Shown here piece by piece: positions 6,100 to 59,554 of a stretch of 64,000 nucleotides of DNA. This stretch comes from an uncultured bacterium (GTDB lineage: Bacteria > Omnitrophota > Omnitrophia > Omnitrophales > JACQLI01): NCBI GenBank assembly GCA_964372875.1, contig CAYJTB010000004.1, forward strand, positions 4,343-68,342. The letters are read 5' to 3'. Positions within the stretch are counted from its first letter, which is position 1; the number at the start of each line of letters is the position of its first letter. The notes beneath the pieces were generated by a model. The model was not told the DNA's origin, did not search any database, and saw nothing but the letters and a program-made list of their open reading frames with translations. Made by a program: the position numbers and the translations under genes.

Positions 6100-6187
6100 G
6101 TCATCCTGAGCAGGGCGACACGTCTTCGAGTGCGGCAAAGCCGCGAGGATCTGGGATCTTTCAGCCGCTTCGTGTCTTCAGGATGAC
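6100..6187. repeat. Palindromic repeat element, copy A, with termini GTCATCCTGAGC...TCAGGATGAC, immediately downstream of hppA.
   Basis: A 10-bp terminal inverted repeat forms a long hairpin. It shares internal blocks (CAAAGsCsGCGArGAwTCT and GATCTTTCAGCC) with copy B at 19368-19434. Confidence 0.6.
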
Positions 6188-17241: not shown

Positions 17242-17805
17242 ATGGATGAAAAGATAATAAGGGAAGAACTCTTAAAAATTGTCAAAGAGAAGGCTTTTCA
17301 AAAAGGGGATTACACTTTATCAAGCGGAAAAAAATCCAGTTACTATTTCGATGGTAAACAAGTGACGCTTCATCCGCAAGGGATCCTTCTTCTGGGGAAG
17401 ACGATATTGGCGATGCTTCAAGGGGTTACGGCAGATGCGATAGGAGGACCCACGCTTGGGGCCGACCCCATTGCAGCGGCCGTCGCGCTTTTAAGTTCAC
17501 AGACCGGCCGGCCCTTAAAGGCCTTTATTGTCCGGAAAGAAGAGAAAAAACACGGGACTCAAAAAAGAATCGAGGGTCCCAAGCTTGAAAAGGGTGAGCG
17601 GGTAGTCGTGGTGGAGGATGTGATTACCAGCGGCAAATCAGTCATGCAAGCGATCGGTGAAATCGAAAAATTAGGCTGCCGCGTGGTGAAAATAATCTGC
17701 TTGGTAGACCGGGAAGAAGGGGCGGGCCAACTTCTCAGCCCTTACAATTTTTCCCCGATTTTTACGAAAACTGAACTAGAAACTTCCGCCCGTCTTACTT
17801 CCTGA
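17242..17805 (+). CDS. pyrE: Orotate phosphoribosyltransferase.
   Basis: PRPP-binding motif VVVVEDVITSGKS and type I PRTase fold length. Confidence 0.85.
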   Translation: MDEKIIREELLKIVKEKAFQKGDYTLSSGKKSSYYFDGKQVTLHPQGILLLGKTILAMLQGVTADAIGGPTLGADPIAAAVALLSSQTGRPLKAFIVRKEEKKHGTQKRIEGPKLEKGERVVVVEDVITSGKSVMQAIGEIEKLGCRVVKIICLVDREEGAGQLLSPYNFSPIFTKTELETSARLTS

Positions 17806-18307
17806 CGTAATCCAGCGTATCGTGTTTTGCGGGCGCGGCAGACTTTGTGTAGTCTTCCGCATGATGCGTCGCAGGAGCGGGCTCGGGTTCTGAAACAACT
17901 TGACCTGTAGTATCTTGAGGAACCGCCAATTCGCCTTCTTCAAACTCCAAACAATTGGAATAGGAACGAGCCACGGGAAAACCATTAAAGCCTGGGACCC
18001 AAAACGTAACAACGTCCAAGGCGCCTGAGGTAAGACGTAGCGCGGTGCAGCCAAGACCACTACCCACACCTGTGAGCGTACCTACAATCGGCGGCCCGAC
18101 TTTTGAACCTTCTACCGTATGAACGATGATGTCTACAAAGGAGGTAACGATATTCAAAAGACCCCGTCCTAACATCCCCCCAAATTTAGTTCCGTAAACA
18201 GGAGAATTGGCAGCGCGCCAAACATCGTCAACTGAATCTTTTGCCCAGACCGAAGGAACCAACAATAAGGAAAGAATAAGTAAAAGCGCGATCTTTTTCA
18301 TCGACAT
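17795..18307 (-). CDS. Secreted protein, paralogous to 12796..13107.
   Basis: Signal peptide MSMKKIALLLILSLLLVPSVWA. It shares a core with the other small secreted protein and has a Pro/Glu-rich acidic C-terminal tail. Confidence 0.4.
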   Translation of the reverse strand: MSMKKIALLLILSLLLVPSVWAKDSVDDVWRAANSPVYGTKFGGMLGRGLLNIVTSFVDIIVHTVEGSKVGPPIVGTLTGVGSGLGCTALRLTSGALDVVTFWVPGFNGFPVARSYSNCLEFEEGELAVPQDTTGQVVSEPEPAPATHHAEDYTKSAAPAKHDTLDYVRK

Positions 18308-18477
18308 GCTCCTTGTTTTTTAACTTGTGACAGTGACGTTAGAAAGAGTCAATAAAACCCCTTCATTATACTGAAGCTTCTTAAATTATCCATGATTTTT
18401 TAGCATGCGTTTTAGTCGATCTTTAAGGACCATTTAACCTCTCTCTATCTAGTATTAATAACAATTTATAGCAATAG

Positions 18478-18506
18478 TTGACAAATATATACTATTGTGC
18501 TATTTT
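18478..18506 (+). promoter_or_regulatory. Sigma70-like promoter (TTGACA, 17-nt spacer, TATTTT) in the AT-rich spacer ahead of the HTH and NusG-like genes.
   Basis: TTGACAaatatatactattgtgcTATTTT. The surrounding roughly 290 nt are strongly AT-rich compared with flanking DNA. Confidence 0.35.
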
Positions 18507-18595
18507 TTGCTAGGGATTTCAACAATTTGAACTCATTTGAGTCAAGTTGAGATCAATAAAGATCACGCAAGTTAGCGAAAGGAGATATATAAATC

Positions 18596-18820
18596 GTGAA
18601 CGAAGACCTAAGAGAAAATAAGAGAGCGGAATACCCTCGCCGCGAGAGAACTCAAATCATGACACCGAAAGAGGCCGCAAAGTATTTGGGGTTCCATCTT
18701 GTGACCATCTATCGGCTGCTTAAGAAAAGAGAAATTCCTGCCGTAAAGATCGGCGGTCAGTGGAGATTTAAGAAAGACGTTTTGGATGCTTGGCTTGTGG
18801 AACGGATGGGAAGAGCTTAA
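18596..18820 (+). CDS. Small helix-turn-helix DNA-binding protein of the excisionase/AlpA (HTH_17) family.
   Basis: MTPKEAAKYLGFHLVTIYRLLKKREIPAVKIGGQWRFKKDVLDAWL is a canonical HTH_17 fold. The start is GTG at 18596 (with AAGGAGA RBS) or ATG at 18659. Confidence 0.6.
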   Translation: MNEDLRENKRAEYPRRERTQIMTPKEAAKYLGFHLVTIYRLLKKREIPAVKIGGQWRFKKDVLDAWLVERMGRA

Positions 18821-18843
18821 ACCTCTCAGAGGATTACCCATCG

Positions 18844-19365
18844 ATGGTTATCGCATCAAGTTCTGTATCTTGGGATGAGTTACATTGGTATGCCCTTTAC
18901 ACAAAAAGCCGGCATGAGAAAGTAGTTGAGGAAGGGCTTCAAGGTAAAGGAATCAAGACCTTCCTTCCAACCCGGAAACTTATTCGTCATTGGACGGACC
19001 GGGTCAAGCATATCGAGGAACCCATCTTTAAGGGTTACCTTTTCGTTCAAATCCCCTTGAGAAAACAATTGGAAGTCTTGGAAACCCGCGGCTCCGTTCG
19101 TCTGATTGGGTTTAATTCTTTTCCAGTTCCTATTCCTGAAAAAGAGTTAGAGACTGTCCGAAAATTTATTCAAGAGGACATTGCAATTGATCCCTACCCT
19201 TATTTAGCGGTGGGGAATCGGGTCTATGTCCGTTCCGGCCCGTTCAAAGGGGTCGAAGGTTTTATTGTTCGTAAAGACCGGCATACGCGCCTCGTGATGT
19301 CACTGGATCTTTTATTTCAATCGATCTCTGTCGAAATCGACGAAGCGCTTGTAGAAAAAATATAG
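18844..19365 (+). CDS. NusG-family operon-specific transcription antiterminator (RfaH/UpxY/LoaP-like paralog).
   Basis: An NGN domain (WYALYTKSRHEKVVEEGL...PIFKGYLFVQ) plus a C-terminal KOW (GNRVYVRSGPFKGVEGFIVRKD). It sits immediately upstream of the long plus-strand glycan locus. Confidence 0.7.
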   Translation: MVIASSSVSWDELHWYALYTKSRHEKVVEEGLQGKGIKTFLPTRKLIRHWTDRVKHIEEPIFKGYLFVQIPLRKQLEVLETRGSVRLIGFNSFPVPIPEKELETVRKFIQEDIAIDPYPYLAVGNRVYVRSGPFKGVEGFIVRKDRHTRLVMSLDLLFQSISVEIDEALVEKI

Positions 19366-19367
19366 CC

Positions 19368-19434
19368 GTCATTCTGAGCCGCCAAAGGCGGCGAAGAATC
19401 TTAGATCTTTCAGCCCTTCGGGCTTCAAGATGAC
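19368..19434. repeat. Palindromic repeat element, copy B, with termini GTCATTCTGAGC...TCAAGATGAC and an internal GCCC-UUCG-GGGC hairpin.
   Basis: It shares termini and internal blocks with copy A (6100-6187) and begins 3 nt after the NusG-like stop codon. Confidence 0.6.
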
Positions 19435-19569
19435 AAGAATGCCCCTCGCTAAGTCCTTCTGGGACTGAGAGGGCGAAGCTGTGTAAAGCAATGAAAAATA
19501 TAAAATTAAGAATGGAAAATGAACAGCGTATGCAATTTTGCATTTTACATTTTAGATTTTGAAATTTTT

Positions 19570-21546
19570 ATGTGCGGAATCGCAGCCATATTTGCTTACC
19601 ACTACGTAGCTCCTGAGGTCAATCGGGAAGAGCTCCGGCTTATAAGAGATGCCATGGCTTCCCGGGGCCCCGACGGTGTAGGCGAGTGGTTTTCTGAAAA
19701 TGGGAAGGTCGGCTTGGGACACCGCCGGCTTTCCATTATTGATCTTTCTCCCAGAGGCGCCCAGCCGATGCAAACGGAAGACGGAAAAATTGTCGTGAGC
19801 TTCAACGGAGAAATTTATAACTATCGCGAGTTGCGTTCAGACCTCGAAAACAAAGGTCGTATTTTCAGATCGAATTCAGATACCGAAGTCCTGCTTCATC
19901 TTTATCAATTAAAAGGCCAGGCAATGGTTCACGATCTTCGGGGAATGTTTGCCTTTACATTGTGGGACGGCAGAAAAAATTCTTTGTTCCTTGCACGCGA
20001 TCCCTATGGGATCAAACCTCTTTATTATGCGGACGATGGCTGGACGGTTCGAGTTGCCTCTCAAGTCAAAGCACTGCTAAAAAGCGACAAGGTTTCAAAA
20101 TTAGCCGAGCCCGCCGGAACCGTGGGTTTTTTTCTGATGGGCAGCGTTCCCGAACCCTACACGCTTTATCAAGAAATCCGTCAAGTCCCCGCAGGGAGTT
20201 ATGTTTGGGTGGATGAGCTGGGACCGTCATCACCGAAAAGATATTTTTCGATTGCGGAGATTTTAACGTCATCGCGAGGAGGCCGTAGAGATCCCTCGCT
20301 CGTCATTGCGAGCCCGACGAAGTCGGACGAAGCAATCTCGGGCTCGGGACAGGCTCCGCAATCCGGTTCTGAGATTGCTTCGGCATCACTTGAAACACCG
20401 CCTCGCAATGACGTAAGTGTTCACTCCGCGCTTCTCGACTCCGTTCGCCATCATTTTGTTTCGGACGTTCCGGTGGGAATATTCCTTTCCGGCGGAATTG
20501 ATTCGGGATCCTTGGTATCTCTTGCAAGAGAGACCGGAATCCAAGATCTGCAAACCATGACTTTGGCATTCGAAGAATTTTACGGAGGTTCTTTGGATGA
20601 GATGCTTTGGGCAGAAACCGCCGCCCGAAAATTCGGCACCCGGCATACCTCACATACTCTTACGGAAAATGAATTCAAAAAAGAATTACCTCACTTTTTT
20701 GAATCCATGGATCAGCCGACAATTGATGGAGTGAATACTTATTTTATAAGTAAGGCCGCCCACGAATCGGGATTAAAAGTTGCTTTGTCAGGCCTTGGCG
20801 GAGATGAACTCTTTGGCGGCTACTCAACTTTTCAGGATATTCCTCGGCTGGTTGGGGCATTGGCCTTTCCCTCAAGAATTCCATTTTTGGGCGACGGTTT
20901 TCGTCATTTGTTTTCTATTCCAAGCCTACGACCAAAGTCGTTACACCCTAAATATGCGGGCCTTCTCAAATACGGTGCAAGCTATTCAAGCGCCTACTTT
21001 CTCCGACGCGGGCTTTTCATGCCGTGGGAATTAGACTCGGTGATGGGCAAAGAGATGGTTCACGAAGGATTAAACAGGCTTCAATTACTGCCGTCGATAA
21101 AAAGGACGCTTCAGCCCGAACCCAAAGATCCTTTTGCCAAAGTTGCCACCTTGGAGTCTTCCTTATATATGCGCAATCAACTGCTCCGTGATACCGATTG
21201 GGCGGGAATGGCTCACTCTTTGGAAGTGCGTACACCTTTCGTCGACTCAACGCTTCTAAAGAAACTGGTCCCTTTTTTAGTTTCTGAAAATCATCCTCAT
21301 AATGCCGGAAAAAAAATTCTCACCGGAAGTCTTAGCAATCCTTTACCCGGAGAAATTACCCGTCGTGCGAAAACAGGTTTTTCTGTCCCCGTGGAAAAAT
21401 GGTTGGAAAAAGGCGGCGAATTAGATATGTGGCAGCGAATCCCCAGCTTGCAAAGCCAAGGGACTCCGTGGGCCAGGCGGTGGGCTTATGTCGTGATGTC
21501 AACTTTCAATAATGCAGTCGTAAAAGAGGAGGCGAGTGTCACATGA
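19570..21546 (+). CDS. Asparagine synthase (glutamine-hydrolysing)-like amidotransferase, paralog 1. It contains an in-frame palindromic-element insertion.
   Basis: MCGI N-terminal nucleophile Cys, an Ntn glutaminase domain and an SDVPVGIFLSGGIDSG PP-loop. The ORF-track start at 19519 is upstream of the real MCGI start. Confidence 0.85.
   Translation: MCGIAAIFAYHYVAPEVNREELRLIRDAMASRGPDGVGEWFSENGKVGLGHRRLSIIDLSPRGAQPMQTEDGKIVVSFNGEIYNYRELRSDLENKGRIFRSNSDTEVLLHLYQLKGQAMVHDLRGMFAFTLWDGRKNSLFLARDPYGIKPLYYADDGWTVRVASQVKALLKSDKVSKLAEPAGTVGFFLMGSVPEPYTLYQEIRQVPAGSYVWVDELGPSSPKRYFSIAEILTSSRGGRRDPSLVIASPTKSDEAISGSGQAPQSGSEIASASLETPPRNDVSVHSALLDSVRHHFVSDVPVGIFLSGGIDSGSLVSLARETGIQDLQTMTLAFEEFYGGSLDEMLWAETAARKFGTRHTSHTLTENEFKKELPHFFESMDQPTIDGVNTYFISKAAHESGLKVALSGLGGDELFGGYSTFQDIPRLVGALAFPSRIPFLGDGFRHLFSIPSLRPKSLHPKYAGLLKYGASYSSAYFLRRGLFMPWELDSVMGKEMVHEGLNRLQLLPSIKRTLQPEPKDPFAKVATLESSLYMRNQLLRDTDWAGMAHSLEVRTPFVDSTLLKKLVPFLVSENHPHNAGKKILTGSLSNPLPGEITRRAKTGFSVPVEKWLEKGGELDMWQRIPSLQSQGTPWARRWAYVVMSTFNNAVVKEEASVT
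20301..20413. repeat. Palindromic repeat element, copy C (CGTCATTGCGAGC ... GCTCGCAATGACG), inserted in frame within the AsnB-like coding sequence.
   Basis: A perfect 12-bp terminal inverted repeat, a nested inner inverted repeat (GAAGCAATCTC / GAGATTGCTTC) and a CCGAC-GAA-GTCGG hairpin. It encodes a low-complexity S/A/P/G-rich linker that is absent from the paralog at 40455. Confidence 0.65.
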
Positions 21547-22570: not shown

Positions 22571-23644
22571 ATGAAAATTTTAGCCTTGGTAACGGAGGCC
22601 TATGGAGGAGCGGGAGGAATCGCCAGGTTTAATCGCGATCTTCTTAAGGCGCTGTCTCAAATCGAACCTCAGCCAGAGATCGTAATATTACCGCGCGTTC
22701 GCCCCTACGGGGCTCGCAATGACGGATTGGTAGGTAAATTAGGTTACGCTACTGCGGCCTTAAAAACATTTTGGCAACAAGGCCCTTTCGATTTAATTTT
22801 CTGCGGCCATCTTCACTTAGCGCCTTTGGCCGCGCTTCTTTCACGAATGAAGAAAACGCCGGTTTGGCTTCAAATTCACGGCATCGAGGCATGGCAGAGA
22901 CCGTCTGATCTTCTCGCCCGGGCGGCGGAGAGCTCAGATCTTGTCACTGCGGTAAGCCGCCATACCCGAAGAGAATTTTTAGAGTGGGCCTCTATCGATC
23001 CTGGGAAAGTGCGCGTTCTCCCCAATACCGTGGATGAAAATTTTACCCCCGGTCCCAAACCGGACTACCTGCTCAAGCGTTACGGATTAGAAAATAAAAA
23101 AATTCTTTTCACCCTCTCCAGGTTGTCCTCTCAAGAAAAATATAAAGGCCATGACCGGGTTATCCGTGTCCTGCCACGCCTCCTGGAAAAATTCCCCAGC
23201 CTCGTTTATACGATCGGAGGATCGGGCGATGATCAAGCCAGGCTCCAGGCGCTAGCCGGGGAGTACCGATTAAAGGATGCGGTGATGTTTCTGGGTGAAA
23301 TCAAAGAGACCGAGCTTGCCGATCATTACCGCATGGCGGATCTTTTTGTGATGCCGAGCACGGGAGAAGGATTTGGGATCGTATTTCTTGAGGCGGCCCG
23401 CTCAGGAATTCCTGTTGTCGCTGCCGGGGCGGGAGGAGCTTTCGATGCCCTGCTGGAAGGAAAGATCGGGCGCTTGGTGAATCCGGATGATGCTGATGCG
23501 CTGGCGCAAGCCATTGAAGAAACTTTAGCTTCCCGTACCCATTCCCCCAAACTTGTTCAGCGATTTTCTTCCGCCAACTTTCACCAGTTGGTTGAAACTT
23601 TGATGAATGACCGGCTTGTTTTGACGGGTGTTGAAAATGGTTAG
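22571..23644 (+). CDS. Glycosyltransferase family 4.
   Basis: C-terminal EGFGIVFLEAARSGIPVVA (E-x7-E) GT-B motif. Confidence 0.75.
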   Translation: MKILALVTEAYGGAGGIARFNRDLLKALSQIEPQPEIVILPRVRPYGARNDGLVGKLGYATAALKTFWQQGPFDLIFCGHLHLAPLAALLSRMKKTPVWLQIHGIEAWQRPSDLLARAAESSDLVTAVSRHTRREFLEWASIDPGKVRVLPNTVDENFTPGPKPDYLLKRYGLENKKILFTLSRLSSQEKYKGHDRVIRVLPRLLEKFPSLVYTIGGSGDDQARLQALAGEYRLKDAVMFLGEIKETELADHYRMADLFVMPSTGEGFGIVFLEAARSGIPVVAAGAGGAFDALLEGKIGRLVNPDDADALAQAIEETLASRTHSPKLVQRFSSANFHQLVETLMNDRLVLTGVENG

Positions 23645-24506
23645 CCTGGAACGAATTAAAAACGCAATCCGGAACCGGTATTTTTCAGAAAACCGGGTTG
23701 TCGTCATTGAACCGGCAAAAGGCTGGCGGATGTTGGACTTCAGAGAACTCTGGGCTTATCGGGAACTGTTTGGGGTATTGGCATTAAGAGACATCAAAAT
23801 CCGCTATAAGCAAACGGTCCTGGGTTGCGCCTGGGCCGTCATTCAACCGGTGATGGGAATGGTGGTGTTTTCTGTTATTTTCGGACATTGGGCCAAGATA
23901 CCCTCAGACGGTTACCCGTACCCAATTTTTGTTTATGCCGGACTTCTCCCTTGGAATTTTTTTGCGGCCACTCTGGCCGCAGCGGGAAATTCCGTGGTGA
24001 GTTCCTCCAATCTTATCACTAAAGTTTATTTCCCTCGCCTGATCGTTCCCATGGCTTCTTTAGGGACACCTCTTGTGGACTTTTTCATTTCCTCGTTTGT
24101 CATGCTGTCGCTCATGATATATTTCAAAGTCGGATTGCATATCAACCTTCTCGCGATTCCATTTTTGATTCTCGCCGTTATTTTTACCGCGCTCGGCGTG
24201 GGGACTTTGCTTTCGGCTTTAGTCGTTGCGTACCGCGACTTCCGATTCGTGATCCCCTTTCTTTTGCAAGTCTGGATGTATGCGACGCCCGTGATTTTTC
24301 CGATCGGGCTTGTGCCGAGCCAATGGCGGTGGGCGCTTTATCTCAATCCGATGGCCGGCATCATCGATGGGTTCAGGTCTGCATTTTTGGGAAAACCTTT
24401 TAATCTCGATGTCCTTGGGCTTTCCTTTTGTGCGGGCATCGTCATGTTTATTATTGGGGTAGCTTATTTCGAAAAAGTCGAGCGCCGTTTCGCGGATGTA
24501 ATTTGA
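23628..24506 (+). CDS. wzm: ABC-2 type polysaccharide export permease (Wzm/KpsM/TagG-like).
   Basis: Six TM helices and an ABC-2 permease signature. The cognate ATPase lies about 3.9 kb downstream, beyond an accessory insertion. Confidence 0.8.
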   Translation: MLKMVSLERIKNAIRNRYFSENRVVVIEPAKGWRMLDFRELWAYRELFGVLALRDIKIRYKQTVLGCAWAVIQPVMGMVVFSVIFGHWAKIPSDGYPYPIFVYAGLLPWNFFAATLAAAGNSVVSSSNLITKVYFPRLIVPMASLGTPLVDFFISSFVMLSLMIYFKVGLHINLLAIPFLILAVIFTALGVGTLLSALVVAYRDFRFVIPFLLQVWMYATPVIFPIGLVPSQWRWALYLNPMAGIIDGFRSAFLGKPFNLDVLGLSFCAGIVMFIIGVAYFEKVERRFADVI

Positions 24507-24507
24507 T
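24454..24507. repeat. A 54-bp perfect direct repeat, copy 1, covering the 3' end of wzm. Copy 2 is at 26077-26130.
   Basis: Exact identity (TTGGGGTAGCTTATTTCGAAAAAGTCGAGCGCCGTTTCGCGGATGTAATTTGAT) at both positions. Confidence 0.85.
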
Positions 24508-24544
24508 ACCCGCCAACGGTCACCGAAGAAAGCTGCTCTTTTGG

Positions 24545-25699
24545 GTGGAGAACTACCACAGTTTTTATGATCAATACCTCCAAGCGCATCCTGAATTAGA
24601 AAAAGAATCCTTTGAAGGGATCAGCCGGAAACTCTATGAACAAATGTTTTATCAAGCGGATAGTTACGCTTACGCCGCTCGCGAGCTCGGGTATGACGCC
24701 GGGCAAGTGATTCCCACATGCCGCTCCCTTCAGGAGCGATGGGGAGCCGAACACGGAATGTCGTTCCCCCCTCGCTGGTTGAGCTCGAGACCCTGGCGCT
24801 GGTGGTGGACACGGATCGCTGGAAAACCGCACCCCAAGGAGTCGTTCTATGAAAAAATTCTATTGAAACAACTCGAGGAATTTCGTCCCGATCTTCTCTA
24901 TATTTTCACCGGGGCGCCGATAACGTCCTCACTCCTTGCAAGGGCCCGAGAATTCTGCAGCCGCATTGTCATTCAGTGGACCTGTCTCATTGACCCGAGC
25001 CATCCTTTTCATTTGTACGACGAAGTGGTTTCGTGTGCACGAAATTTTGTCGAAGACTTTCGCAGCATGGAAGTTCCCGCGGCCTTCTGTCCCCACGCTT
25101 TTGACGAAAGGGTGCTGAATAAAATTCGAATACCTGCAAACAAAGAAGGAGCGGTGTTTGTAGGAAGCCTATCCGCACTGCACCGGCACCGGATTGAAAT
25201 TCTCGACCAACTTTCGAGGCAAATGGATTTTGACTTCTACGGCATGGGGGTCGAGTGCCTCCTCAAAGATTCGCCGTTGAGGAAATATTACCGGGGCCCG
25301 GTCTTCGGGCTTCCGATGTATGAGGTTTTCTCCCGCTGCCGGGTTGTAATCCATGCTTCAGGAGACGCCACCCTGCCCGCTGCCGGAGCCAAGAGACTTT
25401 TTGAAGCAACCGGAGCCGGCGCCTTTCTTCTGACCGAGGACCAGCTGGGGCTTGGAGAGTTCTTTGAAGTTGGAAAAGAAGTTGAGACCTTTTCAAGCGT
25501 GGAGGAATGCGCCGAAAAAGTTCGATATTTTCTATCACATGATTCAGCCAGAGAAGCAATCGCTAAAGCGGGTCAGACGCGGACACTTCGCGATCATACG
25601 TTTCGGGTTCGGATGCCGAAACTCATGGAGATTCTGGAGAATGTCATCGAAGGTAAGGGAGCTCGGGAGACCGTTGCAAGAAGAGCGAAACTCGTTTGA
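24545..25699 (+). CDS. CgeB-family (DUF3880 / Glyco_trans_1_2) glycosyltransferase-like protein. The start is uncertain and the gene may be 5'-truncated at the repeat junction.
   Basis: The C-terminal region (RYFLSHDSAREAIAKAGQTRTLRDHTFRVRMP) resembles CgeB-type GT domains and is paralogous to 52332..53360. No canonical start follows wzm in frame, and GTG at 24545 is the first candidate. Confidence 0.45.
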   Translation: MENYHSFYDQYLQAHPELEKESFEGISRKLYEQMFYQADSYAYAARELGYDAGQVIPTCRSLQERWGAEHGMSFPPRWLSSRPWRWWWTRIAGKPHPKESFYEKILLKQLEEFRPDLLYIFTGAPITSSLLARAREFCSRIVIQWTCLIDPSHPFHLYDEVVSCARNFVEDFRSMEVPAAFCPHAFDERVLNKIRIPANKEGAVFVGSLSALHRHRIEILDQLSRQMDFDFYGMGVECLLKDSPLRKYYRGPVFGLPMYEVFSRCRVVIHASGDATLPAAGAKRLFEATGAGAFLLTEDQLGLGEFFEVGKEVETFSSVEECAEKVRYFLSHDSAREAIAKAGQTRTLRDHTFRVRMPKLMEILENVIEGKGARETVARRAKLV

Positions 25700-26085
25700 G
25701 TGGATTAACGGTGAAAAAGAAATCGACAGGCCGTGAACAAGCTCAGGGATTCAACTTCTTCAAAAAAGCGGGGCCTTCTTCATCCTCCTGGGAGAATCAA
25801 GTTCGCAGCCTCTGGAGGGAGTATCTCGTTGAGACGTTGGGGAGACCCGAGGAGAATGCCCGCGAGAGGATCGAGCAAGAGATTTCAGCTTCTATCTATC
25901 ACGAACTTCTCTCCGGATTGGAAACGGCGGGATGGAAATTTGAGGGAAGCGTGGCCATTGACATCGGCTGCGGCACGGGCGGCCTTGTGGGTGAACTCGT
26001 AAAACGATCGGCCCATGCGGTGGGAATCGAACCCGGCACGGCTTGGCGCGAAGCGCCGAGCCAACGGCTGTTATCCTTGGGGTAG
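25696..26085 (+). pseudogene. 3'-truncated class I SAM-dependent methyltransferase fragment.
   Basis: Only motif I (IDIGCGTGGLVGELV) and motif post-I are present. The ORF runs into direct-repeat copy 2 and stops after 129 aa. Confidence 0.5.
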
Positions 26086-26130
26086 CTTATTTCGAAAAAG
26101 TCGAGCGCCGTTTCGCGGATGTAATTTGAT
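26077..26130. repeat. A 54-bp perfect direct repeat, copy 2, duplicating the wzm 3' end.
   Basis: Identical to 24454-24507. Confidence 0.85.
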
Positions 26131-26214
26131 GAATGTTGGATGGTTGAGGGGTTGGGTCGTTGAACCGGGGGAAATTAGGACAGGCGGAGATAATCCCGGA
26201 TGTAGCGGACGATC

Positions 26215-26679
26215 TCAATTTGAACCATGGCCGGAAGGGGTTCCCAGATTTTTCAAATACCGGGTCAAATAAAATTGCTGAATGCGTCTGAGAGGGGCCG
26301 TATCTTGATAACGACGAAAAGTATCAACAAAGACCTGCTGTTCCAGGAGAGAATCGCGGCAGTAGACGAGGATGCCCTGCGTGAAAGTTTGATATTGAAG
26401 AAGAGGCGGTGCTTGGTTGAGGAGGACCAAATCGATCCGATTACTTTGAAAAGCACTCATGAGGCAGCCTGTGAGATGAGCTTCGTAGCCGTAAGGATAT
26501 TTTTTCTCTCCGGCTTTTTCCTCATTAATAAAGACACCCATGTCAATATCGCTGAGGGGTGTTGTCCGGCCTTGGACAGAGGATCCGAAGAGGTAGGCGA
26601 ACGAGACCTCCTCCCGCTTTTCACAGAAGGCGACAAGCTTTTGTTTGAGTGTTTCAAGATCCAAAATCATAGCAGGCAA
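26215..26679 (-). CDS. Nucleotidyltransferase-domain protein (MNT / Pol-beta superfamily), solitary.
   Basis: LFGSSVQGRTTPLSDIDMGVF (GS...DxD) minimal nucleotidyltransferase motif. It lies on the opposite strand to the surrounding locus and has no adjacent HEPN partner. Confidence 0.65.
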   Translation of the reverse strand: MPAMILDLETLKQKLVAFCEKREEVSFAYLFGSSVQGRTTPLSDIDMGVFINEEKAGEKKYPYGYEAHLTGCLMSAFQSNRIDLVLLNQAPPLLQYQTFTQGILVYCRDSLLEQQVFVDTFRRYQDTAPLRRIQQFYLTRYLKNLGTPSGHGSN

Positions 26680-26780
26680 AGCTTAGACGAGCGGACCCGT
26701 TTTGTCAATTTGTTGAATCGTGGATCGTTGAAGTGGTTGAGCGGCCATCGCAACAGGCCTTGAAATTATATTTCAATATG

Positions 26781-26796
26781 TTATCATAAATGATAA
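26781..26796. promoter_or_regulatory. Perfect inverted repeat TTATCATaaATGATAA about 10 nt upstream of the abiEi start. It is a candidate autoregulatory operator.
   Basis: Two 7-bp palindromic arms with a 2-nt spacer. AbiEi antitoxins are known to bind inverted repeats in their own promoters. Confidence 0.4.
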
Positions 26797-26805
26797 TTAA
26801 ACAAA

Positions 26806-27444
26806 ATGAAATTTATAGAGTTCGTACAGGCCTTTGGGAGACTCCCCCTCATTGAAACAGAAAATCTGTTGGCAGGAGCCGCCGATAGCGCCGCGATTAA
26901 AGTGCAACTCAGCCGTTGGACAAGAAGTGGAAAAATTATTCAGCTCAAAAGGGGCGTCTATCTTTTGGCCGAGTCCTATCGCCGGGTGGAGCCTTACGAA
27001 CCTTTTATCGCATCCATTTTGAAAAAGCCGTCTTATCTGAGCCTTGAAAAAGCCCTTGAGCATCATCATTTAATTCCGGAAAGTGTGCCCGTCTATACCT
27101 CGGTGACCCCCAAAGGGCCAGCGAGATTTATTTCCGAACTAGGCAGTTTTAATTATCGGCACATCCAGCCTTCTCTTTTCTGGGGATACGAATCAGTCAC
27201 CGTTCGCCGCCAAACAGCCTTTATCGCTACTCCGGAGAAAGCTCTCTTAGATTTGATCTATCTCAAAGCAGGAGAAATTTCCGGGGATTACTTGGAAGAA
27301 ATGAGGCTGGAGAACCTTCAAGCCCTCCGGCCTACCCGAGTTTTGGCGCATGCCGCGCGCTTTAACATGCCCCGTATGGCGCGCGCAGCCCGAGTGCTCA
27401 CCGCTTTTATCCGCTCACGCCGCCGGGAGGAAAAAACGCTTTGA
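26806..27444 (+). CDS. abiEi: Type IV toxin-antitoxin / abortive-infection antitoxin AbiEi-family protein.
   Basis: An N-terminal wHTH and an AbiEi_4-like domain (KRGVYLL...KALLDLIYL). It is followed by an AbiEii-family nucleotidyltransferase gene. Confidence 0.65.
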   Translation: MKFIEFVQAFGRLPLIETENLLAGAADSAAIKVQLSRWTRSGKIIQLKRGVYLLAESYRRVEPYEPFIASILKKPSYLSLEKALEHHHLIPESVPVYTSVTPKGPARFISELGSFNYRHIQPSLFWGYESVTVRRQTAFIATPEKALLDLIYLKAGEISGDYLEEMRLENLQALRPTRVLAHAARFNMPRMARAARVLTAFIRSRRREEKTL

Positions 27445-27463
27445 TCCCATCACCTCCATTGCA

Positions 27464-27500
27464 AAAGGATGCCAATAAAGATCAGGAGCATCCTTTTGAA
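27464..27500 (+). terminator. Hairpin (GGATGC-loop-GCATCC, extendable to AAAGGATGC/GCATCCTTT) followed by TTTTG, between abiEi and abiEii. It could be an intrinsic terminator or attenuator.
   Basis: A stem of 6-9 bp, a 15-nt loop and a U-run. It sits in the 105-nt gap between genes that are normally tightly coupled. Confidence 0.3.
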
Positions 27501-27549
27501 ACCCTGTGGGTTTCCTCGATGCGAGGCATCGAAGAATGGAGATGATGGG

Positions 27550-28359
27550 ATGAAAGATTACGTTCTCGAGCTCGCTCGGTCCCAAAAAGATTCAAATGCC
27601 AAACTGAACACGATGCGCGAATACCTTCAGGCTTACATTTTAAAAATCTTGCACGGGCAGGGTTTTTTTCGGACGAATGCCTTTGTGGGAGGCACAGCCT
27701 TGAGATTTCTCCATGGCTTGCCCCGTTTTTCAGAAGACTTGGATTTTTCGAAGGAGAAGCAACCCGCCGATTCTTTCGAAGCATTTTTAAAAAAACTTAA
27801 GCGCGAATTGGAGCTAGCCGGCTACGAAATCTCCATTTCCTGCCGAGATCAAAAAACCGTGCAAAAGGCATCGGTCAAATTTGAGGCCCTCCTGCACGAA
27901 GCCGGGCTTTCGCCTCTTCCGGGACAAAAATTGGCCGTCAAACTCGAGATCGATACCCATCCTCCTGAAGGAGCCGGCTTAAAAACAGAAATTGTTAACA
28001 AATATTTCCCAATCGCCTTCCTCTCGTATGACCTGCCATCCCTTTTTGCCGGAAAATTGACGGCGCTTTTTTTAAGAAGGTACACCAAGGGCCGGGATCT
28101 TTTTGATTTGGGGTGGTATCTATCCCGTTGGAGAGGGCTGGTTCCCAACCTAGCGCTTTTGCGGAACGGACTCGAACAGGCTTCTTGGCGGGGACCGCTT
28201 CCGACAGAATCAACTTGGCGGGATCCAGTTTACGGTTTCGTTGAGAAAATCGATTGGGAACGAGTTAGAGAAGACGTCCAAAATTTCCTGGAGAACCCCT
28301 CTGATTTGGATGTTTTTACCAAAGACAACGTACTTGGGCTCGTTAAGGAAAAGCGTTGA
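27550..28359 (+). CDS. abiEii: AbiEii/AbiGii-family nucleotidyltransferase toxin (DUF1814).
   Basis: TMREYLQAYILKIL...FVGGTALRFLHGLPRFSEDLDFS is the AbiEii NTase motif (GG...SxDxD). The start is taken at MKDYVLE. Confidence 0.7.
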   Translation: MKDYVLELARSQKDSNAKLNTMREYLQAYILKILHGQGFFRTNAFVGGTALRFLHGLPRFSEDLDFSKEKQPADSFEAFLKKLKRELELAGYEISISCRDQKTVQKASVKFEALLHEAGLSPLPGQKLAVKLEIDTHPPEGAGLKTEIVNKYFPIAFLSYDLPSLFAGKLTALFLRRYTKGRDLFDLGWYLSRWRGLVPNLALLRNGLEQASWRGPLPTESTWRDPVYGFVEKIDWERVREDVQNFLENPSDLDVFTKDNVLGLVKEKR

Positions 28360-44019: not shown

Positions 44020-44175
44020 GTTACTATCATTAAAATTATCCAAGTCCCATTTTGTTTTTATCCCGACGCGGTCGGGGGAACGGAAGTTTATGCCGAAGCG
44101 CTCGCTAAAAATTTGAAAAAGCTGAGCATAGAATCCGTAGTTTGCGAGCCTGCGGAGAGAGAAGAAGTGATATAA
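44020..44175 (+). pseudogene. Orphan 5' fragment of a GT4 gene (about 50 codons), duplicating the start of the GT4 gene at 44934.
   Basis: It translates to IIKIIQVPFCFYPDAVGGTEVYAEALAKNLKKLSIESVVCEPAERE, against the intact gene's FKTLQVPFCFYPDAVGGTEVYVEALAQGLKKFGVESVICAPAEKE. The first roughly 70 nt are near-identical and similarity then decays. Confidence 0.6.
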
Positions 44176-44200
44176 TGCCGCCAAAAGGGAAGAGAAACTC

Positions 44201-44536
44201 ATGAACATTCAAGAAACTCCCAACCAAAAAGTCATTCTCGATATCGTCGATAGAATCAAAAAAAACTACCGTCCTCAAAAAATCATTCTTTTCGGTTCCT
44301 ACGCTTACGGCCAGCCTCATCGGGATAGCGATATTGATTTGATGGTCGTTAAAGAAACTTCCGAAAGACCCATCGATCGGAGAGTGAATGTTAGCCGGAT
44401 TGTTTCGGATCCAAAGCGGCTTGTCCCATTCGGGGTGATCGTATTGACTCCTCAGGAGCTTTCCGATCGGCTTAATCGGGGAGATCAATTTATTGCTGAG
44501 ATTATAAAAAATGGCAGAATCTTGTATGAAGGGTAA
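44201..44536 (+). CDS. Minimal nucleotidyltransferase (MNT), the antitoxin-like partner of a HEPN protein.
   Basis: ILFGSYAYGQPHRDSDIDLMVV (GS...DxD). Confidence 0.75.
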   Translation: MNIQETPNQKVILDIVDRIKKNYRPQKIILFGSYAYGQPHRDSDIDLMVVKETSERPIDRRVNVSRIVSDPKRLVPFGVIVLTPQELSDRLNRGDQFIAEIIKNGRILYEG

Positions 44537-44921
44537 AGAATCCAATTATCCTTCGGACTGGTTCCGGCTCGGCGACAAAGAACTTATCCGCGCAAGAAAT
44601 CTTCTAAAACTGGATGACCTGGACGGAGCCGCTTTCAACCTTCAGCAGGCTTTGGAAAAATATCTCAAAGGCTATCTGCTCTCAAAGGGATGGGCGCTTC
44701 GCCGGATTCATGATTTGGACACTCTTTTGAACGAGACCGTTCAGCATGATGCCTCCTTTGAGAAATTTCGGGAAGCCTGTCTAAAAATTACTCAATATTA
44801 CATCGAAGATCGTTATCCTTTCACGGGGAATTCCGAGTTAACCAAGACAGAAATCGAGGATTCTCTTGAAACTTCAGAACAATTGATAAAAAAAATTCGC
44901 CGGTCATTTGATTTGATCTAG
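44511..44921 (+). CDS. HEPN-domain protein, the toxin-like partner of the MNT.
   Basis: Alpha-helical, with the Rx4-6H motif (RRIHDL). It overlaps the MNT gene by 26 nt. Confidence 0.7.
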   Translation: MAESCMKGKESNYPSDWFRLGDKELIRARNLLKLDDLDGAAFNLQQALEKYLKGYLLSKGWALRRIHDLDTLLNETVQHDASFEKFREACLKITQYYIEDRYPFTGNSELTKTEIEDSLETSEQLIKKIRRSFDLI

Positions 44922-44933
44922 TCACTTCTTCTT

Positions 44934-46310
44934 TTGTTCAAAACTCTCCAAGTCCCATTTTGTTTTTACCCCGACGCGGTCGGGGGAACGGAAGTTTATG
45001 TTGAAGCACTCGCTCAAGGTTTAAAAAAATTTGGAGTGGAGTCCGTGATATGCGCGCCGGCTGAAAAGGAGAGCGCCTATTCTCACAAAGGTCTCAAGGT
45101 TCGGCGCTTTGCTGTTCCTTCTGCGGTAAGTGATCTTCGGGAGCTTTACGGTGAAGGGAATTTCGAAGCAGCCCGGGCATTCTCCAAGATTTTGGATGAG
45201 GAAAAACCGGACCTTGTTCATCTTCACGCCTTCACGCGCGGCGTTTCTCTTCGTTTGGTACGCGAAGCAAAATCCAGAGGAATTCCTATTATCTTTACAT
45301 ATCACACGCCGACCGTGAGTTGCCAGCGGGGAACCTTGGTGCGTTGGGGTAAAGAAATCTGTGACGGCGTTCTTCGGCAGCGTCTCTGTTCTCAATGCAC
45401 GCTTCATGGCTTGGGAATGAATCGATTGGCTGCTCAAGCAATAGGAAGTCTTCCGTCCGTCGTCGGCCGGCTCATGGGACGAATGGGTCTCGCTGGAGGA
45501 GCTTGGACGGCCCTCCGAATGTCAGAACTTGTCAGACTCCGCCACCAAACACTTCATCGGTTTCTAGGAGAAGTTGACTCCATTGTTGCAACAGCTTATT
45601 GGGTCAGGGATCTTCTGGTTCGGAATCACGTATCCCCTCACAAGATCGCCGTCTCTCGGTATGGATTGTGTCAACCCTCCGCGCTCTCTACGAACTGCTC
45701 AAAATCGGAAGTCACGAGCTCACGACTAAGATTAAAAGTTGCTTTTATGGGTCGCATGGATAAGACCAAAGGACTTCATATTTTGATTCAGGCTGTGAAA
45801 TCGTCTCTTCGCCTTTCCGTCACCTTGGATCTTTATGGGGTTGCGCAAGGAGAATTCGGCCATGGCTATGAACGGGAGATGCATGCTTTGGCCGGAGAGG
45901 ATAGACGAATCACTTTCCATCCCTCCCTCCATGGCGAAGAAATTATATCTACATTGAAAAATTTCGATGTCCTCGCCGTCCCCTCTCAATGGTTGGAGAC
46001 AGGACCTATGGTGGTTCTGGAGGCATTCGCAGCTGGAATTCCCGTCGTGGGGTCGAATTTAGGCGGGATTTCAGAATTTGTTAAACATGAAACCAACGGC
46101 CTTTTGGTGGAAGAATTTCGATCAGCAAAAACATGGGCCGAATCCTTTCAGCGGCTTGTTGACAGCCCGGATTTGGTGGCCCGTTTGTCACGTGGGATAA
46201 AAGCTCCGAGAACCGTAGAAGAAATTGCCCAAGATATAATGTCTTTATATGAAACCCAACTTAGAAACAAAAACCCAAAGATTAAAGCCGCCCATGATGC
46301 CGACACTTAG
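44934..46310 (+). CDS. Glycosyltransferase family 4.
   Basis: GT-B fold with a C-terminal motif (ETGPMVVLEAFAAGIPVVGS). Confidence 0.75.
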   Translation: MFKTLQVPFCFYPDAVGGTEVYVEALAQGLKKFGVESVICAPAEKESAYSHKGLKVRRFAVPSAVSDLRELYGEGNFEAARAFSKILDEEKPDLVHLHAFTRGVSLRLVREAKSRGIPIIFTYHTPTVSCQRGTLVRWGKEICDGVLRQRLCSQCTLHGLGMNRLAAQAIGSLPSVVGRLMGRMGLAGGAWTALRMSELVRLRHQTLHRFLGEVDSIVATAYWVRDLLVRNHVSPHKIAVSRYGLCQPSALSTNCSKSEVTSSRLRLKVAFMGRMDKTKGLHILIQAVKSSLRLSVTLDLYGVAQGEFGHGYEREMHALAGEDRRITFHPSLHGEEIISTLKNFDVLAVPSQWLETGPMVVLEAFAAGIPVVGSNLGGISEFVKHETNGLLVEEFRSAKTWAESFQRLVDSPDLVARLSRGIKAPRTVEEIAQDIMSLYETQLRNKNPKIKAAHDADT

Positions 46311-47144: not shown

Positions 47145-48296
47145 TTGAATAAGGTTATCTACATACAGTATACCAATCCAGCCGGATACCCTTCGCTGGA
47201 ACACAGCTCCCGGATTCTGGCGGACCGCGGCTGGCAGGTACGCTTCTTAGGCACGGGTGCCTTTGGCGCGAATAGATTGCAATTTCAGGAACATCCCAGG
47301 ATTTCGGTCAAACTTCTTCCCTTCTGCCGCGAAGGATGGAAACAAAAACTTCACTATCTCTGGTTTTGTGTCTGGACGATTACTTGGTTTCTATTCTGGC
47401 GCCCCCAATGGATCTACGCTTCGGACCTTTGGTCATGCCCCCTTGCTTGGTTCCTGAGCCTCCTAGGAGCACGAATCATTTATCACGAACATGATTCACC
47501 CGGAAGTTCTGGCGGAAGATTATGGTTTAACCTATGTCATTGGTGTCGGAGAAAAATCGCTCGTCAAGCCAATGTAGTCGTCATTCCAAGTAAAGAACGA
47601 GCGGACAGATTTTTAAATGATACTCAGACTCATCGTATGATCCATTGCATTTGGAACTGCCCAAGCAAAAGAGAAATGTCCACCTTGCGTCAATCTCTCG
47701 CCAAAGAAAATGGCGATCCCACCCTCAAAATTTATTATCACGGGAGTCTCAATCCTTATCTGCTTCCGTTAACGTTGCTAAAGGCGCTTGCATTGCTGGA
47801 GGGGCAGGTTCGGTTATTGGCTATCGGTTACGAAACAGTCGGTTCTCAAGGTTATCGAAATATTTTTGAACAAAGAGCCAAGGAAATAGGTGTAAAAAAA
47901 TATGTATCTCTCTTTCCGCCGAAGCCTCGGTCCGAGTTGTTTCATTTAGCGGCACAATGTGAAGTAGGACTGGCTCTCTTTCCGATGCACTCGGACGATT
48001 TCAATTTTCAACACATGGTAGGGGCTTCCAACAAACCTTTCGATTACCTAGCGAACGGCCTCGCCGTTTTGGTTTCTGATCTGCAAGATTGGAAGGAGAT
48101 GTATGTGGAGCCGGGGTATGGATTGGCTTGTGACCCCAGTGACCCCCAAAGTATTGCTGCCCGTCTTCAGTGGTTTTTAGACCACCGTGAAGAAACGCAA
48201 TCTATGGGCGAGCGCGGCCGGCAGCGGATTTTATCCGAGTGGAATTATGAACGGCAGTTTGCGCCGGTTTTGAAACAGCTACTGGTCCACCGATAA
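47145..48296 (+). CDS. Glycosyltransferase family 4.
   Basis: GT-B fold with N-terminal WQVRFLG and a C-terminal nucleotide-sugar-binding domain. Confidence 0.7.
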   Translation: MNKVIYIQYTNPAGYPSLEHSSRILADRGWQVRFLGTGAFGANRLQFQEHPRISVKLLPFCREGWKQKLHYLWFCVWTITWFLFWRPQWIYASDLWSCPLAWFLSLLGARIIYHEHDSPGSSGGRLWFNLCHWCRRKIARQANVVVIPSKERADRFLNDTQTHRMIHCIWNCPSKREMSTLRQSLAKENGDPTLKIYYHGSLNPYLLPLTLLKALALLEGQVRLLAIGYETVGSQGYRNIFEQRAKEIGVKKYVSLFPPKPRSELFHLAAQCEVGLALFPMHSDDFNFQHMVGASNKPFDYLANGLAVLVSDLQDWKEMYVEPGYGLACDPSDPQSIAARLQWFLDHREETQSMGERGRQRILSEWNYERQFAPVLKQLLVHR

Positions 48297-48321
48297 ATCA
48301 TAGGGAGTTCAGATATGAGGG

Positions 48322-49617: not shown

Positions 49618-49775
49618 AACCTACAATATACAAATTTTTTGTCAAGTATAATCGACAGAAAAGGGTGCCCCAGGCAAGCCCGGGGGAACCGGAGCAGTAC
49701 CTGCCCGAGGTTCCATGCCCTGGGCAGGTGGCCGAGCGAAGCGAGGTCCCTTGACATATTAACCCTAGCTCTCCT

Positions 49776-49866
49776 TGGCGAAGGCGAGGGAGGTCGCCAA
49801 CGGATCCTGGGCGAATGGAATTATGAACGGCAGTTTGCGCCGGTATTGGAGTTATTAAATGGTTAA
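49776..49866 (+). pseudogene. Orphan 3' fragment duplicating the end of the GT4 gene 47145..48296.
   Basis: It translates to GEGEGGRQRILGEWNYERQFAPVLELLNG* against the intact GERGRQRILSEWNYERQFAPVLKQLLVHR*. There is a 29-nt identical core, and its stop overlaps the next gene's ATG. Confidence 0.6.
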
Positions 49867-58903: not shown

Positions 58904-58970
58904 TCATCCTCGGAATCAACGCCTATCACGGCGATGCAGCGATAATTCCGAAGAGTGGTTATTGACGTTT
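58902..58970 (+). pseudogene. Orphan 5' fragment (22 codons) duplicating the start of the carbamoyltransferase gene at 59555.
   Basis: MIILGINAYHGDAAIIPKSGY* against the intact MIILGINAYHGDASAALIVDG. Its ATG overlaps the GT2 stop (aATGAtc) as an operon-coupled start would. Confidence 0.6.
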
Positions 58971-59237
58971 GAGAAATCGCTCGATTTCGTCATGATTTCC
59001 ATACAAGGCAAGGTAATAATCAATGCCGATCTTCTTCATGATGATCCGATTCTTAAGGTCTACGCGAATCTCAAATTTATCCATGGCTAATTTCTTAAAG
59101 CCGAGTCCCGCGTTCATTTCTCCCGTTCGAATGAAGTGATCGAACGCCAAGAGAGATTTTTCTACAGATCGAGCTTCTTGACCTCTCAGTTTTTGAATCT
59201 GTTTGAGGAAGGTGGGAAGATAAAAAACGCGGCTCAC
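58959..59237 (-). CDS. RelE/ParE-family type II toxin-like protein.
   Basis: A roughly 92-aa basic protein with a FEIRV...IIM..IG..YYLALYG.H pattern. It is translationally coupled to the upstream AbrB/MazE-like gene. Confidence 0.5.
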   Translation of the reverse strand: MSRVFYLPTFLKQIQKLRGQEARSVEKSLLAFDHFIRTGEMNAGLGFKKLAMDKFEIRVDLKNRIIMKKIGIDYYLALYGNHDEIERFLKRQ

Positions 59238-59491: not shown

Positions 59492-59554
59492 CTTGGTCTC
59501 CTTGAGTAAAGGTAGCATAAGTACGTAATAAATGCAAATACTTATTAGATATCA

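Follow-up and report, generated by a model that had tools for sequence, protein, structure and literature searches.

How is transcription kept going through a glycan locus of at least 44 kb in an uncultured bacterium? The question is raised by a stretch of 64,000 nucleotides (nt) from contig CAYJTB010000004.1 of an Omnitrophota genome, which we call the window. In it, a small helix-turn-helix (HTH) gene, a gene for a specialised NusG paralog (Y hereafter) and a leader of 204 nt (19366-19569) stand directly ahead of a long series of glycan genes. The initial annotation had read this arrangement as the strategy of UpxY, RfaH and LoaP for processive transcription of long glycan operons, with an ops-like site somewhere in the leader. 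We consider it probable that the HTH gene, Y and the leader form a processive antitermination module of the UpxY type, in which Y would be recruited at a conserved hairpin-plus-core element in the leader (19443-19483). Below, we set out the identity of Y, the conservation of the element and its likeness to known recruitment sites, and then weigh the other explanations. Features of the window are collected in Table 1.

The gene for Y begins 23 nt beyond the HTH gene. Its product had been described as a NusG paralog with NGN and KOW domains, and profile scans agree: the Pfam NGN (NusG) domain is matched with E=3.3e-19 and KOW with 22.4 bits, barely over its cut-off of 22.3. Y passes the NCBIfam UpxY model NF033644 with 131.6 bits (cut-off 100), covering model positions 1-163 of 164. 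It falls below the cut-offs of the RfaH models TIGR01955 and NF006534 (77.2 against 144.5 bits and 62.8 against 124 bits), of the LoaP model NF033641 (81.8 against 125 bits) and of the NusG model (39.6 against 135.7 bits). Of the three relatives named in the initial annotation, UpxY is thus the one whose model Y passes, and a UpxY/RfaH-type reading is supported, but Y does not qualify as RfaH or LoaP proper. Residues 14-164 do align with Escherichia coli RfaH (E=3e-10), and the two proteins have WY, EPxFxxYLFV and TRG in common. An AlphaFold model of Y (53 sequences, predicted local distance difference test [pLDDT] 77) combines an NGN domain, which has a beta2-beta3 hairpin, with a C-terminal, five-stranded KOW barrel and shows no alpha-helical hairpin, and the nearest solved folds found by Foldseek are NusG and RfaH. 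The beta strands of the KOW domain are predicted at residues 126-172 with a pLDDT of about 72, a prediction that cannot exclude RfaH-like fold switching. Hundreds of metagenomic homologues of Y exist, and a single Y is visible in the window. Altogether, profiles and predicted fold place Y among the specialised NusG paralogs of the UpxY family, and its gene heads a long glycan operon.

If Y is such a factor, where would it be recruited? Two palindromes in the leader had been proposed, and a search for conserved leader motifs in related genomes instead turned up a third element, lying between them. This element, CCCTCGCTAAGTCCTTCTGGGACTGAGAGGGCGAAGCTGTG, is kept in every close relative and is our candidate for the ops-like site that was expected between the paralog and the first biosynthetic gene. 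It consists of a predicted nascent-RNA hairpin that directly abuts a short ops-like core, GGCGAAGCTGTG. Across 22 aligned instances, the positions TG-GAC--A-AGGGCG-AGCT are invariant, and 21 of the 22 also have the T that comes two positions later; the apical region varies from 0 to about 30 nt and forms a helix of its own whenever it is present. A covariance model of the element (R1) was searched on the window and on 476 kb made up of the window and related loci. The window holds one match (63.3 bits, E=3e-13) and the larger set 36, all 36 on the strand of Y. Twenty-six distinct loci have a Y that is 48% or more identical and no less than 200 nt of sequence beyond it. The core follows Y in 24 of them, at 1-160 nt past the stop codon in 23 and at +483 in one; in the window, the element starts 78 nt past the stop codon of Y. 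The linkage of element and Y holds whatever the first glycan gene. An Rfam scan of 18200-19700 at E<=10 gave nothing over 19443-19488 and no JUMPstart match. A conserved small open reading frame (ORF) starting at the GTG of the element was considered and rejected, as GTG-TAA occurs in the window and in locus L001, with GTA or GTC in other relatives. In one relative, L020, the element is doubled in tandem, with copies at 845 and 908, a spacing of 63 nt.

The element is predicted to fold as RNA. The hairpin of the window has a free energy of -15.4 kcal/mol (z=-2.7), those of relatives have z-scores of -3.4 to -6.1, and RNAalifold, given a plain MAFFT alignment, arrives de novo at the same pair of stems. 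Because the MAFFT alignment of all 22 instances (A2) misaligned the 5' arm, an alignment of 10 sequences (A3) and the covariance-model alignment were used in its place. One pair of the stems is CG in 10 instances, AU in 8, UG in 5 and GU in 2, and another is GU in 12, AU in 11 and GC in 4; such frequent G-U pairs point to pairing in RNA rather than in DNA. One segment behaves differently. TGGGACTGA (TG-GAC--A), at -23 to -15 relative to the predicted pause, is invariant even in the short forms of L001, L031 and L060, where it lies unpaired in the loop, and this invariance without pairing fits a segment that is read out as duplex DNA. No residue of Y could be linked to the base in the loop of the core (A or G), since the only columns that co-vary with it track phylogeny.

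Such a composite site has a counterpart. In Bacteroides fragilis, UpxY proteins are recruited at opsX sites of about 40 bp in the leaders of capsule operons (Saba et al. 2024, PMC11685472). Class-1 opsX sites have a NusA-stabilised nascent RNA pause hairpin that reaches -12 to -9 and a non-template DNA hairpin, 5'-YGCGNAGCR, within -11 to +1, of which the E. coli ops equivalent is GCGGTAGC; the NGN domain reads upstream duplex DNA at about -16 to -36, and the upxY start codon lies at +41/+42 (PMC11685472). Set against these published descriptors, and with T19482 assumed to be position -1, the element of the window lines up as follows. The consensus positions of an elemental pause are G-10, Y-1 and G+1, and the window has G19473, T19482 and G19483 in these places. 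The 3' arm of its RNA hairpin, GAGGG, occupies -14 to -10 and could be extended to C-9 by pairing with G19441. The GCG-N-AGC core is present exactly in GGCGAAGCT (19472-19480, at -11 to -3) and is invariant in the 22 aligned instances, and the conserved segment from -15 to -23 falls where the B. fragilis proteins read upstream duplex DNA. The proteins correspond as well: both are UpxY-family NusG paralogs dedicated to one locus at the head of a polysaccharide operon, and the beta2-beta3 hairpin of the NGN domain is basic in both (LPTRKLIRHWTDRVKHIEEP in the window, LPTQFVIRQLYKRR[R/K]RVEVP in B. fragilis Class-1 proteins).

The module of the window also differs from the B. fragilis one. The element lies downstream of the Y stop codon (about 80-120 nt), whereas the B. 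fragilis site lies about 41 nt upstream of the Y start. In B. fragilis, upxZ encodes an inhibitor of non-cognate UpxY, although some UpxY proteins there have no UpxZ (PMC7593976). In contrast, Pfam scans of the genes neighbouring Y in the window gave no UpxZ family match; an HTH_17 gene precedes Y and an AsnB gene follows it, and an invertible promoter is not evident in the window. The named relatives of Y are from Omnitrophota or other members of the Planctomycetes-Verrucomicrobia-Chlamydiae (PVC) group, not from Bacteroidota. A further comparison is with four Chitinophagaceae loci whose proteins are named "UpxY family" by NCBI (L004 and L096-L098), with a Y only about 30% identical to that of the window. 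Three of the four have the core TGTGACTGAGAG(N)GGCGAAGCYGTG on the strand of Y, and in L096 it is more diverged. There, unlike in the window, the element has a Wzc-like gene before it and Y after it, which places it upstream of Y, and an HTH_17 gene was not seen; AsnB-type and glycosyltransferase genes follow downstream, as in the window. In two distant metagenomic relatives (L044 and L062), the core likewise lies 14-51 nt ahead of the Y start codon. Judged by sequence, these appear to be one family of sites, placed before the Y gene in Bacteroidota-type loci and after it in the clade of the window.

The antitermination module that we propose would work as follows. From the promoter ahead of the HTH gene, polymerase would produce a single transcript of the HTH_17 gene, Y, the leader and the glycan genes. 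At the element, the nascent CCCUC...GAGGG hairpin would form and the polymerase would pause at U19482, as would fit G-10, U-1 and G+1, while in the open bubble the non-template GGCGAAGCT would form a small hairpin, GCG-A-AGC. Y would read this hairpin through its NGN domain, and probably also TG-GAC--A as upstream duplex DNA, and would take the place of housekeeping NusG on the polymerase. So modified, the polymerase would resist pausing and termination over at least 44 kb, inserted cassettes included. The KOW domain may in addition help to load ribosomes on the first gene. This link is possible because the first gene has no Shine-Dalgarno sequence and because, in L009 and L013, the ATG of AsnB (inside GCTATG) sits at the predicted pause, 7 nt past GAGGG; ribosome loading has been discussed for RfaH and for Class-2 UpxY. 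Upstream, the HTH_17 protein would most likely bind two boxes that flank the promoter and thereby set the level of the whole transcript.

Several points weigh against this reading or temper it. The analysis establishes what the genes are, how the element is conserved, its strand and position, its fold and its agreement with the published opsX descriptors; from these we infer pausing, binding of Y, antitermination and the role of the HTH protein. The likeness to opsX was drawn from published descriptors, not from a base-by-base alignment with opsA, opsB and opsE, and the bases that flank the non-template hairpin are G and T in the window, as opposed to Y and R in opsX. Position +1 is A rather than G in many relatives, although T(-1) is kept in 21 of 22. 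The covariation term of RNAalifold is a modest -0.25 kcal/mol, and in the outer stem, which is almost invariant, conservation of structure and conservation of sequence are indistinguishable. In the covariance-model alignment, 89% of stem cells are paired, against 84% after column shuffling (a level reached by none of 500 shuffles) and 37-57% with the partner slid, but this alignment (A4) was fitted to the model, so that the pair counts are biased and the pairing statistics give the hairpin moderate support. The link between the HTH protein and its boxes is one of co-occurrence alone. Lastly, consensus scans for promoters and terminators inside the operon (19366-59365) gave counts at chance level and are silent on internal promoters and terminators, and thus do not demonstrate a need for antitermination.

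A more specific version of the module would give the order of its parts a role. Having transcribed the HTH gene and Y, polymerase would stall about 40-200 nt past the Y stop codon and be loaded there by Y freshly translated from the same nascent mRNA, while the HTH_17 protein would act as operator partner at the co-varying boxes, replacing the logic of UpxZ and an invertible promoter. We put this forward tentatively and think it rather doubtful; if it were true, entry into the operon would depend on local synthesis of Y and not on a pre-existing pool.

The main alternative is that the element acts purely as RNA, either as a LoaP-style hairpin bound by the KOW domain of Y or as a cis-regulatory hairpin that masks the Shine-Dalgarno-like GAGGG and in this way governs translation of the first glycan gene. 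The stems are indeed rich in G-U wobbles (two pairs have GU 12 and UG 11), the GAGGG arm lies 7 nt ahead of the AsnB start in L009 and L013, and LoaP has been proposed to bind an RNA hairpin (PMC11685472). However, the single-stranded tail GCG(A/G)AGCT-T is more invariant than the stems, and TG-GAC--A does not vary even where it is unpaired. Between the element and the first start codon there are from 0 to about 100 nt or more, the first gene differs by locus, and Y scores below the cut-off of the LoaP model. We therefore regard a purely RNA-level element as unlikely.

It is also conceivable that Y is not the antiterminator of this operon, but acts in trans on other loci or as a general NusG-like factor, with the element serving another end, for example in the processing or stability of RNA. 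Action in trans is known from E. coli RfaH (PMC7593976). In two entries of the 26-locus set, L027/L029 and L030, the HTH-Y pair is followed by a non-glycan gene, and these are the two that have no element; in L060 and L003 the element lies 1.5-2.3 kb from Y (in L060, at position 5836, 2.3 kb downstream). Such exceptions stand against 24 of 26 loci in which Y and element are tightly linked in position, invariably on one strand, and against the presence of a single element in 64 kb, and this explanation seems to us quite improbable.

What, then, of the two palindromes first proposed as recruitment or pause sites? The leader has three parts: a palindromic repeat resembling a miniature inverted-repeat transposable element (MITE), called element B, then the conserved element, then an AT-rich distal segment. 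The palindrome of element B is real and folds strongly as RNA (-29.1 kcal/mol, z=-4.0), but it is mobile and not conserved in relatives. Element B belongs to a dispersed repeat with the pattern GTCATT..GAGC ... GCTCGCAATGAC, which also has an intergenic copy A at 6100-6187 and a copy C at 20302-20412, with a lone terminal match at 22712-22723 on the minus strand. At the place of element B, L016 (Y 90% identical) and L008 (88%) each have a different, unrelated palindromic insertion, and L009, L011 and L012 (Y 66-71% identical) have none, with leaders of only 64-74 nt. Since it is a dispersed repeat that is replaced or absent at the same spot in relatives, we regard element B as a passenger. It was also considered as an intrinsic terminator separating HTH-Y from the operon, and rejected, as no T-run follows it and no promoter-like site is present from there to the first gene; in the Rfam scan it received only a weak Acido-Lenti-1 match (15 bits against 37). 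The short palindrome ATGCAAttTTGCAT lies at 19530-19543, not at 19536-19549 as first given, in a distal segment that is common to the closest relatives only and folds no better than shuffled sequence (z=-1.0). Its left arm is lost in L016 (ATAAAATTTTGCAC), whose Y is 90% identical. Although both palindromes lie in the leader, either one is a most improbable recruitment or pause site.

Two side observations concern these repeats. The short gap that separates the Y stop codon from the conserved element is a hot spot for insertions (window 19366-19442, L016 3517-3640, L008 5523-5612), with three unrelated palindromes in three closely related genomes. Copy C, of 111 nt or 37 codons, is inserted in frame in the linker between the glutaminase and synthetase parts of the AsnB-type gene, to which it adds "VIASPTKSDEAISGSGQAPQSGSEIASASLETPPRNDV"; the AsnB homologue in L009 is without this stretch.

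Table 1. Features of the window, with positions counted from its first nucleotide
Feature	Position	Strand	Remarks
AT-rich divergent intergenic spacer, 288 nt, 31% GC	18308-18595		Between minus-strand TIGR04073-like gene and HTH gene
Promoter-like TGGATA-16-TATAAT for TIGR04073-like gene	18365-18392	-	CATTATAC(T) box kept in most relatives
Conserved box 1, AATAACAATTTATAGCAAT, candidate operator	18457-18475	+	AACAATTT at 18460-18467; directly upstream of -35
Sigma-70-type promoter TTGACA-17-TATTTT, extended -10 TG (TGcTATTTT)	18478-18506	+	Predicted start near 18513
Conserved box 2, TTTCAACAATTTGAAC	18517-18532	+	AACAATTT at 18521-18528; directly downstream of predicted start
HTH_17/excisionase-family small DNA-binding protein, 74 amino acids	18596-18820	+	GTG start, AAGGAG ribosome-binding site
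UpxY-family specialised NusG paralog (Y), 173 amino acids, NGN and beta-barrel KOW	18844-19365	+	Profile scans, structure model
Palindromic MITE-like element, copy B	19368-19434	+	Lineage-specific insertion
Predicted nascent-RNA pause hairpin	19443-19473	+	Outer stem CCCTC/GAGGG, inner stem AGTCCT/GGGACT
Ops-like core GGCGAAGCT-GTG	19472-19483	+	GCG-A-AGC non-template hairpin at -10 to -4; predicted pause U19482 (-1), G19483 (+1)
AT-rich distal leader, 21% GC	19486-19569	+	No Shine-Dalgarno ahead of first gene; holds ATGCAAttTTGCAT palindrome
Glycan locus, presumed target operon	19570-64000	+	Continues beyond window end; broken up by toxin-antitoxin and defence-like cassettes
First biosynthetic gene, AsnB-type amidotransferase (MCGI start)	19570-21546	+	In-frame MITE copy C at 20302-20412
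Cassette a	24428-28359		Glycosyltransferase-like ORF, then AbiEi/AbiEii, between wzm and wzt; 60-nt repeat, 97%
Cassette b	44032-45064		MNT/HEPN; 125-nt repeat, 81%
Cassette c	48207-49848		Minus-strand AAA_14/DUF4143 ATPase; 66-nt repeat, 82%
Cassette d	58899-59596		Two overlapping minus-strand small ORFs resembling AbrB-type antitoxin and toxin; 43-nt repeat, 86%

The module begins with the HTH gene and its promoter. The initial annotation had described a gene of the AlpA/excisionase type ahead of the paralog, and its product matches Pfam HTH_17 (E=5.7e-18) and the excisionase-family domain TIGR01764 (E=4.7e-18); a search of PDB sequences with the protein gave no real homologue. Most loci in which Y is 53-90% identical have an HTH_17 protein that is 74-95% identical (55-60% in L003 and L030), and this protein thus appears to be generally under more constraint than Y. 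It is absent from L032-L038, where Y and the element are both present, and we therefore take it to be an accessory to Y and the element core. In two variants of the module, L063 and L087, a second HTH_17 gene lies between the element and wzm. Could the pair instead belong to a mobile island, with the HTH protein as excisionase or AlpA-type regulator and the glycan locus as cargo? The domain matches and the varied glycan content downstream would fit, but none of the scanned ORFs of the window and none of the genes called in the syntenic loci showed an integrase or recombinase domain, which makes an excisionase role unlikely, and with a junction fixed beside QueF, phosphoribosyltransferase and MgtE genes in relatives 53-90% identical, and a conserved promoter and boxes, this idea is hardly credible.

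The spacer upstream of the HTH gene, given earlier as AT-rich and about 290 nt long, does stand out, with its low GC content against 47% for the window as a whole; the equivalent spacers are 147-314 nt long in the seven loci measured. It contains the near-consensus promoter that had been noticed there, which we identify with the extended -10 site of Table 1. A promoter scan was at chance level overall (4 sites against 2.9 expected), and the weight that we give to this site comes from its conservation and not from the scan: relatives that carry the HTH gene and have sequence upstream of it share TTGAC, the spacing and TGnTA. The two conserved boxes lie on either side of it, and box 1 doubles as the left arm of an inverted repeat (18459-18473/18498-18512). 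In a second group of loci (those examined being L015, L023, L024, L026 and L001), both boxes read AACGATCAA rather than AACAATTT, and in step with this change the HTH_17 protein, otherwise nearly invariant, carries V50T and R16P. The co-variation suggests that the HTH_17 protein binds both boxes, but shared ancestry could equally explain it.

Downstream of the leader, domain scans of the window ORFs place glycan genes from 19570 to at least 63900, nearly all on the plus strand. They include two AsnB-type amidotransferases, many GT4 and GT2 transferases, Wzm, Wzt, NeuB and Bac_transf, along with epimerases (among them a 2-epimerase), a cytidylyltransferase, a carbamoyltransferase and a Wzy-like protein. 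The first of these genes, at 19570, has no Shine-Dalgarno sequence upstream. A glycan operon of about 45 kb behind the paralog is therefore borne out in length, as at least 44 kb, but it is not strictly unidirectional, as there are minus-strand genes in inserted cassettes (48322-49617 and 58959-59518). The operon is interrupted by four or more foreign cassettes, of which two lie on the opposite strand, and these are plausible sources of termination or collision. Each of these small cassettes is flanked by a direct duplication of the end of the neighbouring gene (Table 1). Comparable cassettes occur in relatives, HepT/MNT in L012 and AAA_14/DUF4143 in L013.

The upstream half of the window consists of ordinary housekeeping genes, and the border between the two halves is shared by relatives. 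Those that bear organism names are metagenome-assembled Omnitrophota genomes and one labelled Chlamydiae. In loci with a Y 53-90% identical, the order is the same: QueF, a phosphoribosyltransferase, a minus-strand TIGR04073-like gene, the spacer, HTH_17, Y and a short leader, with MgtE likewise among the housekeeping genes nearby. The first gene past the leader varies by locus and may be AsnB, Bac_transf, Wzm or an epimerase; in L012 there is an inserted HepT/MNT pair. The HTH-Y pair thus marks a conserved chromosomal junction ahead of a variable glycan locus. The TIGR04073-like gene (17795-18307), divergent from the HTH gene, scores 42 bits, below the cut-off of 50; it keeps its place beside the HTH-Y pair in most relatives. 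TIGR04073 is an exosortase-system-associated family, and no exosortase gene was seen among the scanned ORFs of the window.

How does the module compare with better-known NusG paralogs? E. coli RfaH, whose NGN domain aligns with that of Y, likewise has long envelope-glycan operons as targets. The E. coli ops sequence GGCGGTAGCGTG, part of JUMPstart, shares with the site of the window GGCG....GTG, the GCG/AGC stems and the bases G-10/Y-1/G+1, and the 12-nt ops GGCGGTAGnnTG matches GGCGAAGCTGTG at 7 of 12 positions without gaps. There are differences too. The loop of the hairpin is a single base, A or G, in the clade of the window and GT in ops, with no counterpart of the flipped-out T6; the window has an upstream RNA hairpin, as in a type-1 pause, and ops has none; and the KOW domain is a predicted beta-barrel in Y but an alpha-hairpin in RfaH. 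In addition, Y is encoded in cis with its presumed target, unlike the trans-acting RfaH. In this respect Y is closer to Bacillus LoaP and Myxococcus TaA, specialised NusG paralogs encoded beside the long operon that they activate, and LoaP resembles it further in using a leader hairpin. However, the targets of LoaP and TaA are polyketide antibiotic operons, the recognition proposed for LoaP is based on RNA and KOW, unlike that which we suggest for Y, and a GCG-N-AGC element has not been described for either. In three Mesorhizobium loci (L005-L007), an RfaH-like paralog is followed about 90 nt on by a GC-rich hairpin and an ops-like TGCGGTAGCC, and the arrangement of site after regulator may therefore recur in Alphaproteobacteria.

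To our knowledge, control by UpxY and opsX has been worked out only in gut Bacteroides. Our literature search found no paper on UpxY outside Bacteroidales, on NusG paralogs in Omnitrophota or on an excisionase-family protein as partner of NusG. Both the principle of regulation and the family of proteins are known already. What is new is the occurrence of the element, absent from Rfam, in this clade, a core that is nearly identical from phylum to phylum, a position after the regulator gene, and a conserved HTH_17 gene instead of UpxZ. The site of GCG-N-AGC plus hairpin, with its almost invariant 20-nt core, is found with UpxY-like genes both in uncultured Omnitrophota/PVC-type genomes and in those of Chitinophagaceae; that the same site occurs in both suggests a recruitment signal that is old, portable and directly searchable. 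The order of site after gene and the HTH partner offer a natural comparison for what gene order and partner contribute. Finally, because the module marks a fixed junction before variable glycan genes, it would be useful for annotating the diversity of surface glycans in uncultured bacteria.

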